Positions 40,738 through 64,000 of a DNA stretch of 64,000 nucleotides are shown here, one piece after another. This DNA comes from Alphaproteobacteria bacterium (lineage in GTDB: Bacteria > Pseudomonadota > Alphaproteobacteria > MPNO01 > UBA830). Position 1 is the first letter of the stretch, and the number at the start of each line of letters is the position of its first letter. The translations under genes and the position numbers were made by a program. The stretch spans positions 32,001 through 96,000 of the forward strand of contig OZ219791.1 in NCBI GenBank assembly GCA_964291215.2. Reading direction: 5' to 3'. The notes beneath the pieces were generated by a model. The model was not told the DNA's origin and made no database searches. It was given only the letters and a program-made list of their open reading frames with translations.

Positions 40738-43700
40738 GTAACTGCTCACCCCCCTGGTTCCGGCTTGATGTCGGGGTAGAGCAACGAACGGGTTTTCGTG
40801 GAGATTTGACACTGCATGCCGATTCGCTTAGTGGTGGTCATCGAGAACGACGGGGACCGCCAGTGGGCTACTTTGGATCGAAGGCGACGAGTGGGCTGTG
40901 CCAGCTGCTTCCGGGGCTCCGGCCCCCGCATGATCTGTATGTGAAAACGCATCTCGGAAGCGGCGCGCTGATGAAGCGCAAGGCCGGGTGATGGCGACGG
41001 GCGGCGCGCGAGGAGTTCGAAGCGGCCAAGACCGCGGCGCTGCCGGCAAGGTGGCGGAAGAGGCCGTCATCCGCGTCTTCGTCATCCTGCTCGACATCCT
41101 CATCGTCGTCCTTCTGGAGAAGACCACGCACGAGCCGGAACTCCGGTCTGCCGCCGTCACAGACGGACAAGAGCGTGCCGGGAGCAAGGGCCCGAAGCCG
41201 AACCGGCAGATGGGCGACAACCTGCGCAAGATCATCGTCGAGGAGACGGTCGCGGCCTGCGACGCCTGCGGCGCCGACGGCCCCGTCGATCGGGAGCGCC
41301 GCACGACATCGTGTTCGAGGTCGTCGAGCGCCGCGCCGAGATCAAGGAATGCCCGAAGTGCAAGGCCCGGGGCCGGTTCCCCGACAACATCCCGTGCAGT
41401 ACGGCATCCAGGCCCTCGTCATCAACCTGCTGGTCGCCCAAATGCTGTCCCTGCGCCGTCGCGCTCGTGCAGGCGATATCAAGCTCTCCGAGGCCTCGGC
41501 TATGCTTTCACGATGCGTCATGGGAGGAGGCCGCCGTGGCGCACCTCCTGCAACGCCCGATGTCGACGATTTCGGATCAACAGTAAGTGGCTTCATGTCG
41601 TGGGACCCTGACGTGCAAGTTCCCGCACCGCAAGCGCGGGCAAGAGATCGGCCCGTGCTACAAGGGCGTCCTGGGCCTCGTACATGGGCCAGTGTAGCCA
41701 CCAGCGGCAGCCACCTGCTGCGCGAACTGACCTTTGTCGTCGAGTCTACCGCGCGACTGATGAAGAGCCTGCTCCCTGCCACAAGATCAACAAGAGCGCA
41801 TCCAAGACCCTGAACGACGCCGGGCGCAAGCGCTACCGCACCATCAGGGCGCCAGGGAACTGCCCGACATCCCGACGAAAGGAAAACGTGGACGCAAGTC
41901 CGACGCGCACAACCTGCACGAACGTCTCGTGAAACACGAAAACCTGCGCTTCACAGACGACCATTGCGGTAGGGAACCGGGTTACCCCCCGCACAGAACC
42001 GGACGTGCGCTGTTCGCATCCGGCTCCTCCCCTGACGACAAGGCGCTGGTTTGGCCACGGATGCTGGCTCAGTGGGCAGCGGCGAGGGTGTCTATGTCCC
42101 CGGTGACGTCCTTTTGGGAGCGTCGCCGAAGGGCACGCAGCCGTTTGCATTGGTGTATGAACCCCTGCAGGGATTGACTGCTTCCCGGGACGGCGTAGTA
42201 GCAGCCGTTGATGACTCACCACTTGGCCGTTTCGTGCCGGTTGTCGTGCCATTGCATGCGCAAGGCCCCCTTGATCCGCCGCAGGGTGCCCGTTTGCGAG
42301 ACGGTTTGCGACCGACCCTGAACCTGCCTTTCCTCGTCTGTTCGCAGAAGTGCGTCATGCCGAGGAAGTCGAACGTCTTGCCCTGCTTCCGGCGGTTCGC
42401 TCTGGCAAACCGACCGAACTCGATGATTGTCCGGGTGCAGTTCAAGTGGGCCAGCCTCTCCCCAAGGTCCCGGAGAAAGCGCTGCGCATCGCCCAGATGC
42501 TGAAAGCCGCACACGAAGTCGTCCGCATAATGATCGTGTCGCCTCCAGCCATCCGCTTGCGCCAGTGGTTCTGGAACCAGTCGCACGTAGTGCAGGTAAA
42601 CGTTCGCGAGGCAGGGCGATACAATCGCCCCCTGCGGTGTTCCCTTGCCCGTATCCGACCAGTCGGTCCCTTCCATGACGCCGGCGTTTAGCCACTTGAT
42701 GATCAGACCCCCCGATCCGTTTCCCGAGCATCGCAATCAGGTGGTCGCGGTCGAGATTGTCGAAGAACCCGCGGGCGTCAACGATCCAGTTGACCTTCCG
42801 CCGTTCCACCGTGACGGCGTCGAGCGCGTGATGCGCCCCGGCCGGAAACCGTAACTAAACCCGAGGAACTCCGTTTCGTAGAGCGGCACCAGAATCACAC
42901 TGCCCGCTGAAGAATCTTGTCCGAGGCAAGCGGTCGTTGCCCTCCATCCTCCTTGGGTATGTAAACCCTGGAGGCGCCCGGTACGCACCCCTGTGCACAC
43001 GGGCGTGCAGGCAGTTCCACACCCTCCGCATACGCTTGCCACACAACGCCCCGCCGCCGCGTCCTTCCTCAAGGAATGGAACGCATCGTGCAGAGCGTCG
43101 ACCGTCACGTGGTGGAGTAAAGACGCTCTTCCGGGTTCCTCTTCGCTACCTGCGTTCAGCCGCCTGTGACCCCCGCTTCTGCGCGCGGCGCGGGCCAACC
43201 GCATTGCCCTTCCCTCCAGCAACTCCGCAGGCTCCGAAGAACCCTTGTTCGCCGCCTTCAACGGTACTATGGCCGGATCTGACTTCTCGTTCATCATCGG
43301 TTTATGGAATAGTTCCTTTCCTCTGCGGCCCCTCCACGACAGAGGGGCAAGACCTCCCAGGTCCCTGCTTCGGCCATGGTTCTCGGACCCCGCGGAGCCC
43401 CCCTCACCAACGCGGCTCGCGGGGTGTTGCCCACTTGGACGACCTCGGCACTCCGGTTTCAAAGCATCTCGTGGCTCAATAGCCCGGCCTGCCGCTCCCC
43501 AACGCTTCGCCTGACGCCTCACGACGCATGGTTCACGGAGAAAGTGGTGGTTAGCCTCTCTTCCTGCCGGGACTTGCACCCGGCAACATTCCACCAGTTA
43601 GCCTGGCGCACCCAACGTCAGCTTCACCAACAATGCCGGAGAACAGAAGATCAGGATGGCAAAGGTCAAGGTGTCCGGATGCTTCCGCTCCACGCAAAAG

Positions 43701-43851
43701 CATGGTGCCGGGGCTCAAGCTACCTCACCTCCATGGCCGCACTCGGCTACAATCATCACGTCGCAACTCAGATCGCCCTCGACGGAAAAGCCGCAGACAT
43801 CATCAACGAGCACTACGACCAATCAGAACCCAACTAGGGGTGAGTAGATAC
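40738..43851 (+). mobile_element. IS66 copy 2 with 8-bp TSD AGTGGAGC, containing a group II intron
   Basis: Same termini as copy 1. TSD at 40730-40737 and 43852-43859. Confidence 0.95.
41963..43611 (-). mobile_element. ltrA: Group II intron (both termini present) with a frameshifted RT/maturase ORF
   Basis: 5' end GTGCG at 43611. 3' end has domain V/VI-like GAGCCGGATGCG...CGGTTCTGTGCGGGGGG...CCCTACCGCAAT. RT motifs SYGFRPGR, GTPQGAIVSP, YADDF, FDFLG. Precise insertion without TSD. Confidence 0.92.
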
Positions 43852-45180
43852 AGTGGAGCATCGCAAGGCAGTCCGCGTCGCTGACATCCGCGCTCATATG
43901 GTGCATGCCATACTCAGTATCTCGACTATGGCCTGTTTCTATTTCGCGCTGCGCACCCTGCCCTTGGCCACCGTCACCACGATCAATTTCACAACACCCG
44001 TTTTCGCCCTGCTTCTGGCTCGTCTGTTGTTCAACGAACGTGTGCCAAGGATCGGATGGCTGGCGATGACCATCGGTTTCACCGGAACCCTGATGGTTCT
44101 GCGCCCCAGTGCCGAGGGCATTGGCATTGACGCGCTCGTTGTCCTGGTGGGTTCAACCATCGCCGCCGCCATGAACCTGACGATCCGGCGCATGCCCGCG
44201 CGCAGCACGAATTTCGCCGTCATCTTTTATCTCAGCCTGTTCGGAGCGGTCTTCTATGCCATCGTAGGCGGCCCGACGCTGGAAACCCCGACGCATCCCG
44301 AAGCCCGGTTGTTCCTGGTCCTGGGCCTCGTCGCCCTGGGGGTGCACACCTGCATGGCCTTTGCCTATCGGTTTGCCTCTTCCATGCTGATCGGAGCACT
44401 GGACTACTTGCGTATCATCTGGGCCATCCTTCTTGGATATGTGCTTTTCGCCGAGCAACCGGATCTGATCGACCTCGTCGGGATCGTTTTGATCGTTTCA
44501 AGTGGTTGGATCGTGATGCGGACATCAAGCGCCGTGGCTCGGAAACAGCCGGTCAAGCCAGAAGGAACGCTTTGAACCGTTCCGCCGTAACACGAGCCGC
44601 CTCGGGCGTGCGGATCCCCGGCAGCACCTCGGCCTCGGCACCGGGAAGCAATGCCCGCGCGTCCTCGAAGGCAGGCCGAACCAGATCGTTCTCGGCAAAG
44701 GTGATCATGGTTGGCTGGGTGATCCCTGGCACATGGTCCGCCATCGAATAGCGGAACGCCGCGCGATAGCTTTGGTGATAGGTCTTCAACGCCTTCAGGA
44801 TTTCCACATAACGGGCATATAGAAACTCGGCATCCGGCAGGTCATGCGGCACACCCCGATCCGCCTCTTTCCGGAACCAGGGAAACCAGATGAACTGATC
44901 GCGGCAGAATTGCCAGGCCTGGAAGGCGAAGGCGCCCTGCTGATCGGGGGTCATCTCGGGCGTGTATTTCTTCAGTATCTCGTCCACATCGCCGGGTGCA
45001 TAGACCCCGAAACCATCCAGGATCAACCGCTCAACCCGGTCCGGGATTGTCAGAGCGATCTCGCAGGCGATCCGCGCGCCGGTATGGGTGCCGTAAAGGC
45101 GAAACCGATCCATACCCAACCTGTCGGCAACGCCCATGACGGCCTCGGCATAATCCTCAATCTCCGGTATCTACTCACCC

Positions 45181-46307
45181 CTAGTGTCTTGTCATTCGTC
45201 AAATGTCGGATAAAGGCGTTTGAGTTTCACGCGGGCATCGTCGGTGGTGAATTGCCAATCCACCTTGGCCTGAATGCGGTCGCCTGCCAAGCGGCAACTT
45301 CCCGGCGTAACACCTCGATGCAGTCGATGCGGCGGTTCAGGCGGATCATGACGTTGAGTTCCACCACGTTCAGCCAACTGCCGTGCTTGGGGGTGTAGAC
45401 GAACTCGAAGCGGTCCCACAGGGCCTTGGCCTCGTCCGGCGGGTAGGCCTCGTAGAGGGCGCCGGGGAGTGTTGAGATTGTCCATCACCAGGGTGATGGT
45501 GGTGGCATCCTGGTAGCGCCCGGCGATGTCGGCTAGGAACTGCGCCCAATCGATCTTGCGCTCGGTTACCTTGGTCATGCGCTTGCCGGCCAGGGGTTCC
45601 GTGAAGACGTTGCAGGTACCGCAACGTCGATACTCGTAGTCGTTACGCGCTGGCCGTCCCGGCGCCATGGCGATCGATTGCCGTGTCTCGCCGGTCGGGG
45701 CGTTTCGTCCATGCAGACCACGGGGAAGGCGGCGGGACGGCGATAGACATCGAGCACCTTCGCTGCGGCGAAGTCGGCGTTCCCTTGAGGAGGAATCACC
45801 CACCCGCTGCCATGGCTTGAGGCAGTTTTTTTTAGAACACGCCGCACCGTCTCGTGTGACACGGTGTAACCAAGCTCGACAACGCGGTCGGCCAGCAGCC
45901 GCAACGACCATTGCGCGTAACCCTCAGGCGGTTCACCACAACTCAGGGCCACGCGCCTCGAAGACGCCGTCGGCTTTTCGCATATAGGTAGGACGGCGCC
46001 GGCCACCCAATGCCGCCTCCAGCCCCTCGAAACGCTTCTTTACTCGGTCTACTTTGCGCATGCTGATGCGCAGAATCTCAGCAATGACCTTCCCGGTCAT
46101 CTGGCATTCATTGAACGCGCTCTCGTCGCAGTTAAGCAGGATCAGGGCGTTGATTACCTTTTGCGACAGGTGCGAGCCCTTGATCTCCGAAAGTTCTGCC
46201 CGTTCGTCCAGGGTCACCACGTAGCGTTTCATACTCCGACCTCCATCCCGAATGGACGGACAGTCTAGCACCAAATGTACGACATATCATTGCTGACATA
46301 ACACTAG
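45181..46307 (-). mobile_element. IS630 copy inserted at CTAG in the IS66 right end
   Basis: Reverse copy of 15250-16372 with CTAG on both sides. The empty site CAACTAGGGGTG is seen in copies 1 and 2. Confidence 0.92.
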
Positions 46308-47526
46308 TTGGGTTCTGATTGGTCGTAGTGCTCGTTGATGATGTCTGCGGCTTTTCCGTCGAGGGCGATCTGGGTGGCGACGAGTGGGTTGTAGCCGAGT
46401 GCGGCCATGGAGGTGAGGTAGCTTGAGCCCCGGCACCATGCTTTTGCGTGGAGCGGAAGCATCTGGACACCTTGACCTTTGCCATCCTGATTTTCTGTTC
46501 TCCGGCATTGTTGGTGAAGCTGACGTCAGGGTCGTCTGTGAAGCGCAGGTTTTCGTGTTTCACGAGACGTTCGTGCAGGTTGTGCGCGTCGGACTTGCGT
46601 CCACGTTTTCCTTTCGGCGGGATATCGGGCAGTTCCCTAGCGCCCTGATGGTGCGGTAGCGCTTGCGCCCGGCGTCGTTCAGGGTCTTGGATGCGCTCTT
46701 GTTGACCTTGTGGCAGACCTCGCGGAGCAGGCTCTTCATCAGTCGCGCGGTAGCCTCGACGACAAAGGTCAGTTCGCGCAGCAGGTGGCTGCCGCACAGC
46801 TGGTGGCTACACTGGCCCATGTACGAGGCCCAGGACGCCCTTGTAGCACGGGCCGATCTCTTGCCTCCCGGCCGCGCTTGCGGTGCGGGAACTTGCACGT
46901 CAGGGTCCCACGACATGGAGCCACTTGCTGTTGATCCGAAATCGTCGACATCGGGCGTTGCAGGAGGTGCGCCACGGCGGCCTCCTCCCATGACGCATCG
47001 TGAAAGCATAGCCGAGGCCTCGGAGAGCTTGATGCCGGAGATCGCCTGCACGAACGCGACGGCGCAGGGACAGCATTTGGGCGACCAGCAGGGACGAGGG
47101 CCTGAATGCCGTACTGCACGGGATGTTGTCGGGGAACCGGCCCCGGGCCTTGCACTTCGGGCATTCCTTGATCTCGGCGCGGCGCTCGACGACCTCGAAC
47201 ACAATGTCGTGCGGCGCTCCCGATCGACGGGGCCGTCGATGTCGGCGCCGCAGGCGTCGCAGGCCGCGACCGTCTCCTCGACGATGGCAGGTTGTCGCCC
47301 ATCTGCCGGTTCGGCTTCGGGCCCTTGCTCCCGGCACGCTCTTGTCCGTCTGTGACGGCGGCAGACCGGAGTTCCGGCTCGTGCGTGGTCTTCTCCAGAA
47401 GGACGACGATGATGATGTCGAGCAGGATGACGAGGACGCGGATCACGGCCTCTTTCGGCACCTTGCCGGCAGCGCCGCGGTCCGGGTCTTGGCCGCTTCG
47501 AACTCCTCGCGCGCCGCCCGTCGCCA

Positions 47527-47721
47527 TCACCCGGCCTCGACGGTCATGATCGTCGCGAGCATCGCTTGGCGCTCGCCCGGCGGCATCTTCCGGTACTCCG
47601 CCTTGCGCTTCATCAGCACGCCGCTTCCGAGATGCGTTTCCACATACAGATCATGCGGGGGCTGGAGCCCCGGAAGCAGCTGGCACAGCCCGCTCGTCGC
47701 CTTCGATCCAAAGTAGCCCAC
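47527..47721 (-). CDS. 64-aa collapsed DNA adenine methyltransferase mini-gene inside IS66, stop overlapping the transposase start (TGATG)
   Basis: (V)GYFGSKATSGLCQLLPGLQPPHDLYVETHLGSGVLMKRKAEYRKMPPGERQAMLATIMTVEAG*. A shorter version is present in copies 1, 2 and 4. Confidence 0.7.
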   Translation of the reverse strand: MGYFGSKATSGLCQLLPGLQPPHDLYVETHLGSGVLMKRKAEYRKMPPGERQAMLATIMTVEAG

Positions 47722-47826
47722 TGGCGGTCCCCGTCGTTCTCGATTACCACCACTAAACGAATCGGCCTGCAGTGTCAAATCTCCACGAAAACCCGTTCAT
47801 TACTCTACCCCGACATCAAGCCGGAA

Positions 47827-48666
47827 CTAGGTTGTGGACTCAAATAATTGGTTTGCGATTCTGCGGAGCAAGAATCGGCTGGCAGCCAGTTGCACGGCGG
47901 AGAGGAAGTTCCTTGTCATAACGGGTGGCGACCCGTCGGAACTCCTTGATCTTGCCGAAGAACCGCTCGACCAGGTTGCGCATCCTGTAGATCTCGCGGT
48001 CAAGCGGCCGGGGCGATGTCCGGTTGGATTTTGACGGAATGACCGCGGTTGCTCCTGCCATCTCGATCAGATGGCGTCGGTGTCGTAGGCCTTGTCGCCG
48101 ACCACCGTCTCGCTCGAGGTCGGCGAGAAGCGCCTGCGCGCAGTCGGCCGCCTGGCCCGGGGTCAGGAACACGGTTTTCACCCTCTCGTTCTCGCCAAGA
48201 TGGACCTTCGTCGTTCGTCCGCCACGGCTCACTGCGAAGGCTCGTCGTCCCGGGACGCCCCGGCTTGTGAACGCGCACCGACGAGGAGTCCACCATGCGC
48301 AGGTGAACCGAGCGAGCCATCGTCGCTCCCGTCATCATCGCTCGTAAGCCTTTGAAGCTTCTCCATGCCCAGGTGCCGTTCTTGCTCCACCGGTTGAAGC
48401 GGTTGAAGCAGACGGACCGTACCGCTCCGGCAGATCGCGCCACGGCGTACCGGTGCGAAGCACGAAGAATATCCCGTTCATGACCCTCCGGTCATGCACC
48501 CGCTCCGGGCCCTGGTGCTTGTCGGGAAGCACCGAGCGGAGAACCTCCCATTCCGCGTCGCTCATGTCGTGTCGGTCGCCGCTCATCCTTCACTCTCCTT
48601 GTGGATCGCTTTTGACAAGACATGGCAAATCGTGCAAAAATGTCAACATTTGGGTACACACCCTAG
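47827..48666 (-). mobile_element. IS5-family element (IS427-like) inserted at CTAG in the IS66 left end, degraded
   Basis: TIRs GGTGTGTACCCAAAT / GTTGTGGACTCAAAT with CTAG duplicated. Motifs MSDAEWE..DRRVMNGIFFVLRTGTPWRDLPERYGP and RNLVERFFGKIKEFRRVATRYDK. Confidence 0.9.
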
Positions 48667-48899
48667 GGGGTGAGCAGTTACAATCTCCGGTTGATCCCCA
48701 ACAGGCGGCATGGAATCGCCATTGCCCATCGTGTCGGGCGCGATGACATGGAAGGACTTGGCCATCTCGGAAATCAGCGGTTCAAGCTGTCGGGACGACC
48801 CCGGCGAGGCATGAAGCAACAGAAGCGGCGGCGCATCTTTCGTGCCCGTATATCGGTAATAGATCTGCCCTCGCTCGAAATCGACGAAGCCGCGCCGGA

Positions 48900-63088: not shown

Positions 63089-64000
63089 GTAACTGCTCAC
63101 CCCCTGGCTCCGGCTTGATGTCGGGGTAGAGTAACGAACGGGTTTTCGTGGAGATTTGACACTGCATGCCGATTCGCTTAGTGGTGGTCATCGAGAACGA
63201 CGGGGACCGCCAGTGGGCTACTTTGGATCGAAGGCGACGAGCGGGCTGTGCCAGCTGCTTCCGGGGCTCCAGCCTCCGCATGATCTGTATGTGGAAACGC
63301 ATCTCGGAGGCGGCGCGCCGATGAAGCGCAAGGCCGGGTGATGGCGACGGTCAACGCGGCGCGCGAGGAGTTCGAAGCGGCCAAGACCCGGATCGCGGCG
63401 CTGCGTGCGGCCGGCAAGGTGGCGGAAGAGGCCGTCATCCGCGTCCTCGTCATCCTGCTCGACATCATCATCGTCGTCCTTCTGGAGAAGACTACGCGCA
63501 AAACGAGCCGGAACTCCGGTCTGCCGCCGTCACAGACGGACAAGGACAAGAGCGCGAGGCGCGCCGGAAGCAACGGCAAGGGCCCGAAGCCGAACCGGCA
63601 GATGGGCGACAACCTGCCATCGTCGAGGAAACGGTCGCGGCCTGCGACGCCTGCGGCGCCGACATCGACGGCCCCGTCGATCGGGAGCGCCGCGTCCTCT
63701 ACGACATCGTGTTCGAGGTCGTCGAGCGCCGCGCCGAGATCAAGGAATGTCCGAAGTGCAAGGCCCGGACCAAGGGCCGGTTCCCCGACAACATCCCGTG
63801 CAGTACGGCATCGGCATTCAGGCCCTTGTCATCAACCTGCTGGTCGCCCAGATGCTGTCCCTGCGCCGTGCCGTCGCGTTCGTGCAGGCGATCTCCGGCA
63901 TCAAGCTCTCCGAGGCCTCGGCTATGCTTTCACGATGCGTCATGGGAGGAGGCCGCCGTGGCGCACCTCCTGCAACGCCCGATGTCGATGATTTCGGATC
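63089..64000 (+). mobile_element. IS66 copy 4 (runs off the window)
   Basis: GTAACTGCTCACCCC end. Least-deleted transposase N-terminus: MATVNAAREEFEAAKTRIAALRAAG...RKTSRNSGLPPSQTDKD. Confidence 0.92.

Follow-up and report, generated by a model that had tools for sequence, protein, structure and literature searches.

The short open reading frame (ORF) that precedes the transposase in four IS66 copies of the window (the whole 64,000-nucleotide stretch analysed) is a deletion remnant of a 219-aa gene of the Upf31 family with a Dam fold. This gene likely encodes the transcriptional repressor of the IS66 element itself, and the remnant is now likely functionless. By analogy with Upf31, the intact protein would bind an inverted repeat, shut its own promoter and lower transcription of the downstream transposase. 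The gene of the window lineage lost 450 nt between 11-nt repeats and then smaller pieces, giving 14 alleles. Such a collapse would be one of dozens of microhomology-type deletions, and recurrence together with gene conversion may have made it frequent among the 238 copies. The overlap between the stop codon of the ORF and the transposase start would be passively inherited, since none of the deletions extends as far as the stop codon.

Remnant ORFs in the window

The 195-nt ORF of copy 3 (64 codons) translates into the 64-aa peptide quoted in an earlier, sequence-only reading of this DNA, and its counterparts in copies 1, 2 and 4 are 129 nt (42 codons) long and lack an identical stretch of 66 nt (Table 1). 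Searched alone against Pfam, NCBIfam and PHROGs, the peptide gave no meaningful match; it was identified through full-length genes in the genome itself. Its two halves match residues 12–51 (70%) and 198–228 (55%) of a full-length ORF of the same genome, which argues that the 64-codon ORF is not a chance occurrence.

The sequence-only reading placed an ORF between the left terminal inverted repeat (TIR) and the transposase in all four copies, and held that copies 1, 2 and 4 had kept frame and coupling. An ORF ending in a TGATG stop/start overlap at the transposase start is indeed found in each of them, but the left TIR of copy 3 is separated from its ORF by an IS5-like insertion, and the frame that opens at the coupled ATG is broken in all four, shifting after about 4 codons in copies 1–3 and after about 90 in copy 4. 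The transposase remnants give weak matches to PF03050. Copy 3, whose right end is split by an IS630-like element, extends over 45167–48681 and is flanked by an 8-bp target duplication.

Remnants of group II introns (Rfam RF02005 and RF00029) occur within IS66 copies: one lies on the minus strand within the transposase of copy 2, another within the gene core of a long copy (L002). The flanks of copy 1 encode a 736-aa protein in which 14 stretches of RTX calcium-binding repeats were matched (7117–9327) and a 1317-aa fibronectin-III autotransporter (898–4851).

Table 1. Positions of the IS66 copies, their remnant ORFs and associated features in the window
Feature	Position	Strand	Basis
Copy 3 remnant ORF (codons 1–41 plus last 23 codons of the Upf31-like gene)	47527..47721	-	Sequence; comparison with full-length gene
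Sole remaining KRK-coding 11-nt repeat, the collapse junction (intact copy has two, 450 nt apart)	47600..47610	-	
TTGACA -35 box, then degenerate operator position (4/10 matches to the CATAG-N10-CTATG of relatives); putative promoter	47752..47778	-	
IS5-like element between copy 3 left TIR and leader, CTAG on both flanks	47831..48662	.	Sequence; Pfam DDE_Tnp_1_2 and DDE_Tnp_1 below cut-off
Copy 3 left TIR; 8-bp target duplication same as beyond right TIR	48667..48681	-	
Copy 3 IS66 transposase remnant, frameshifted	46304..47527	-	
IS630-like element near copy 3 right end	45182..46303	-	DDE_3 below cut-off
Copy 3 right TIR	45167..45181	-	
Copy 1 (remnant ORF 5196–5324); flanks without target duplication	5072..6596	+	
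Copy 2 (remnant ORF 40863–40991), with 8-bp target duplication; interrupted by a group II intron remnant (about 41963–43610)	40738..43851	+	
Copy 4 (remnant ORF 63213–63341); continues past window end	63089..64000	+	

The intact gene and its distribution

The source genome (6.15 Mb, two contigs) was searched with the left 246 nt of the IS66 element, which gave 251 matches, 238 of them at ≥80% identity. These 238 left ends comprise 179 with a collapsed gene, 19 with a long but broken gene, two with an open 219-aa ORF containing DPPY, and 38 that are truncated or unclassified. The collapsed set falls into 14 length alleles, the most frequent being 129 nt (112 copies), 195 nt (14) and 203 nt (11). 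Both intact ORFs of this lineage precede truncated or broken transposases. Perfect 8-bp target duplications flank 81 of its 124 complete copies, and its TIRs begin with GTAA. Some left ends (G000:C2:972691 and others) change to another shared sequence just after the putative -10 box, at about position 96; they probably represent a derived non-autonomous or chimeric family with the same TIR and promoter.

A sister IS66 element, B, has 12 left ends in the genome, and its gene is open in 10 of 11 complete copies. These 11 copies (L001:804-3160 and 10 more) are near-identical, 10 of them with perfect, mostly different 8-bp duplications. The transposase is frameshifted in all 11, nine of which share the same ten or near-identical deletions, while 10 retain both the open 219-aa gene and the operator described below. 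An undeleted transposase of element B is present in read run X3, and joints of empty sites were found in three runs.

Outside this genome, 257 loci were confirmed in metagenome-assembled genomes titled Alphaproteobacteria, Dehalococcoidia and Binatia. Among the best 80 of them, 66 combine an intact gene and a -4 overlap with a transposase no shorter than 460 aa, and an 8-bp duplication is present in 50 of the 65 with both TIRs. The transposases of three intact relatives scored 285, 249 and 302 bits against NF033517 (cut-off 180). In the intact element the left TIR is followed by a TTGAC promoter box with its inverted repeat, the Upf31-like gene, one IS66 transposase and the right TIR, and 8-bp target duplications flank the whole. 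That an ancestral IS66 carried a full Dam/D12-like gene ahead of its transposase, as postulated from the window alone, is supported by the two intact gene copies here and by the intact loci elsewhere. In 78 genomes of the order, with six candidates scored per genome, no close copy of the window lineage was found, the best reaching 78% DNA identity. In addition, the Upf31-like gene is 63–74% identical among elements (L087, L088, L139, L003) with transposases only 22–32% identical, suggesting that the cassette moves between IS66 lineages.

A Dam fold below the curated methylase cut-offs

The intact protein (219 aa, with DPPY) was modelled at pLDDT 79, and its best Foldseek match is Escherichia coli Dam (E 2.7e-7, TM about 0.55). 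It shares with Dam and M.DpnII (D12 class, PF02086, TIGR00571) the fold, the order of motifs and DPPY. It differs from them in sequence, at 12–14% identity, and is about 35–60 residues shorter; the remnant ORF lacks DPPY altogether. In a sequence search of solved structures, M.DpnII was the only match (E 0.0016–0.57) besides spurious TPR-like ones. The protein belongs to a large family, with 1182 clusters at E 1e-30 or better in a profile search.

Activity of the full-length protein as an N6-adenine DNA methylase, serving as self-marking or anti-restriction cargo, is doubtful. In its favour, 31 of 37 relatives match PF02086 (at E up to 0.1; best 9.5e-7), and among these 37 the DPPY region is near-invariant and the motif I region conserved, which fits a kept catalytic or cofactor-binding role. 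Purifying selection is also evident in intact relatives, pN/pS over codons 2–41 of B-type genes being 0–0.18 in seven comparisons. Because DPPY is conserved, a methylase role keeps some probability. Nevertheless, both curated cut-offs are missed, with 14.1 bits against 22 for PF02086 (element B protein; P0047 gave no match) and 24.4 against 114.85 for TIGR00571. Moreover, the interval between motif I and DPPY, which in Dam contains the target-recognition domain, is only about 50 residues long. The proposed link to D12-class methyltransferases holds for the fold, DPPY and motif order of the full gene but not at the level of these family cut-offs.

Kinship with Upf31 and a candidate operator

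Over 222 aa, the intact copy shares 45% identity (E 5e-67) with the gene at the upf31 position of an IncP plasmid. Plasmid records matching over 80% of its length number 139, with matches annotated upf31.0. Upf31 of IncP-1beta plasmids showed no methylation, either by DpnI/MboI digestion or by SMRT sequencing (Elg et al., 2025; PMC11997246). The same source describes repression by Upf31 of its own promoter from 4.76 to 0.09 XylE units (about 50-fold), an inverted repeat as its likely operator, and natural internal deletions and truncations that inactivate it (PMC11997246).

In the plasmid, the upf31 leader carries an inverted repeat across the -35 box. At the same place, the IS leaders carry CATAG-N10-CTATG in 42 of the 53 metagenome loci whose upstream sequence was long enough (55 of 71 loci examined); the leader of element B has it as well. 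A consensus promoter scan of window positions 47500–47900 called no promoter. The identity to a protein that autorepresses and for which methylation was not detected, together with the Upf31-like repeat at the -35 box, makes a self-repressor likelier than a self-methylase. The intact cassette would thus most likely be an autorepressor upstream of the transposase, a role carried over from a plasmid protein of 45% identity, and the self-methylating IS of the sequence-only reading appears doubtful in view of its closest tested relative (PMC11997246).

Beyond the full-length identity, the likeness to Upf31 extends to DPPY, a C-terminal KRK-W helical tail and, in element B and most metagenome relatives though not in the window lineage, the inverted repeat over the gene's own -35 box. 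There are also differences: the IS66 gene heads an operon with the transposase behind it, the element encodes no KorB partner, and the window keeps only a remnant of 64 or 42 codons. Autorepression and missing methylation are results obtained with the plasmid protein.

How the gene collapsed

In an intact copy, an 11-nt KRK-coding repeat is present twice, in identical form, 450 nt apart. Comparison with the collapsed copies identifies the collapse as the loss of these 450 nt between the two repeats, which removed DPPY, much as had been proposed from the window alone. A further loss of 7 or 15 nt, both also found in long copies, yields the 203-nt (out-of-frame) and 195-nt (in-frame) forms, respectively. 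The 129-nt form is obtained from the 203-nt form when 74 nt are deleted between 8-nt repeats. Since this explains the 129-nt form better, copy 3, which has the 195-nt form, is likely a sibling of the 129-nt form and not its parent; the same 66 nt are indeed absent from copies 1, 2 and 4, but their proposed derivation from the copy 3 form is probably incorrect.

It is extremely improbable that misassembly of repeats produced the collapse and the small deletions. The copies are mosaics and none is identical to another, which would fit such misassembly. However, in contigs built from reads of two runs (X1, X2) the gene core is skipped, with a joint from 932 to 1394 on L083, and loose ends continue into the stop-proximal KRK codons. 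Several 5–7 nt deletions recur in two runs. The deleted transposase of element B is likewise matched gap-free by X1 and X2, and its missing letters are present in X3. These read-derived contigs rule out an assembler artefact and no more than that, because runs X1–X3 belong to a single study, which may have sampled the source itself.

Is the remnant retained for a purpose?

Retention of the mini-ORF as a translational leader that brings ribosomes to the transposase start, as the sequence-only reading suggested, is very unlikely. The TGATG overlap is shared by all four window copies and the relative L132, and the GTG start is present in 149 of 153 copies, although these were chosen by a motif that includes the start. 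Three features speak against neutrality: 135 of the 179 collapsed copies (75%) are in frame, the 58 substitutions in the remnant codons include no nonsense change, and distinct small deletions are some tenfold scarcer in the first 245 nt, at 0.9 per 100 nt in the leader and codons 1–41 compared with 8–11 in the transposase.

These features are partly explained. One allele contributes 112 of the 135 in-frame copies, and only four of the 14 alleles are in frame, as expected by chance. Furthermore, one study describes an excess of in-frame deletions in bacterial pseudogenes that does not require selection (PMC6054270). The scarcity of deletions in the first 245 nt (window 5072–5317, for instance) is equal in the 19 long copies, which already have a broken frame, and short repeats at 5–7 nt spacing are rarer in this region, so the scarcity does not point to coupling, although it is explained only in part.

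Over codons 2–41 of 153 copies, 37 nonsynonymous and 21 synonymous distinct changes were counted (omega 0.88, P 0.68), so that the remnant shows no selection as a protein, in contrast to the pN/pS of 0–0.18 for these codons in B-type genes. The two intact copies differ by 21 nonsynonymous and nine synonymous changes (omega 0.9). Nor does a full-length transposase follow the remnant. The longest ORF from the coupled ATG among the 124 complete copies has 410 codons, compared with 483–485 in intact relatives, and in each of the four window copies a frameshift interrupts the frame that opens at this ATG. Finally, the overlap is a trait of particular lineages: among the 44 environmental relatives for which a downstream ORF was called, 38 have the two frames separated by 3–36 nt.

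Decay of the copies and the order of events

Relative to a union template, which inflates the deletion count somewhat, 115 aligned IS66 copies bear a median of 36 deletions and 27 substitutions per copy, with a deletion peak at 6 nt. Microhomology of at least 1 nt is found at 28 of 33 frequent small deletions, compared with 51% expected. Several disabling transposase deletions occur in 94–107 of the 115 copies, and the collapse is comparably frequent (179 of 200 classifiable). An IS630-like family has the same deletion spectrum, with 12 deletions per copy in 35 copies. Recurrent 5–7 nt deletions are found throughout the IS copies, with window examples in 5072–6596, 40738–43851 and 45182–46303.

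Loss of the operator in the window lineage opens another reading, in which the operator and then the repressor gene were lost, derepressed transposition carried the element to 238 copies, and the transposase decayed later; the remnant would again be junk, and its loss adaptive for the element. We regard this reading as unlikely. Only 3–4 of the 10 operator bases are matched in 212 of 222 scored leaders of the window lineage, and in L132, the closest intact relative with the same TIR, the repeat is partly eroded (7 of 10 bases), while sister element B keeps repeat and gene and has 12 left ends. Most transposase sites lost elsewhere also survive in some collapsed copies. However, the comparison covers two families only. 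A relative with an intact gene (G036) has at least 22 full-length identical matches, the IS630 family reaches 35 complete copies in this genome, and the common transposase deletions are found in two uncollapsed copies. Recombination has also erased the sequence of events: SNP linkage drops with distance, four gametes occur in 28–48% of SNP pairs, and the 129-nt state takes 22 steps on the SNP tree compared with 27 when shuffled. Because the copies exchange sequence, the order of collapse, burst and transposase death is unreadable from that tree.

A wider proposal can be put forward only tentatively. IS66 lineages may exchange an autorepressor of Upf31 type as a portable cassette, its methylase fold having become a throttle on transposition. 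This genome would then be a natural knockout, in which one lineage lost operator and then gene and reached 238 copies, about twenty times as many as sister element B, which kept both.

Relation to known systems and implications

The element belongs to IS66, in what we take to be the single-transposase (ISBst12-like) organisation. It shares with that group NF033517 scores above cut-off in intact relatives, GTAAC-ended TIRs, the 8-bp target duplication and the lack of tnpA/tnpB, and differs in the Upf31-like cassette of its leader. The window lineage itself lacks the full-length transposase of an autonomous IS66, its best ORF covering 410 of about 485 codons and the four window copies being frameshifted.

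Transporter IS (tIS) with methyltransferase passengers are a known kind, and these also combine an IS with one extra methylase-annotated gene. Here, unlike in tIS, the extra gene precedes the transposase within one operon and has a conserved control site, so that a regulatory role seems likelier than one as cargo. In a literature search on IS66 with a methylase gene (titles and abstract openings, IS catalogues being outside its scope), no description of such an element was found. An IS with a methylase-annotated extra gene is in itself already known; what the window adds to it is the decay series and the lost operator.

The remnant is a product of ordinary decay, and its value is as a pointer to the intact element. 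Judging from that element, a widespread gene with the annotation 'DNA adenine methylase' would be a switch on IS66 transposases that regulates itself. Since this genome spans the range from the intact gene to a 42-codon stub, beside a sister family that keeps the switch, it permits a test of whether loss of the switch raises copy number.
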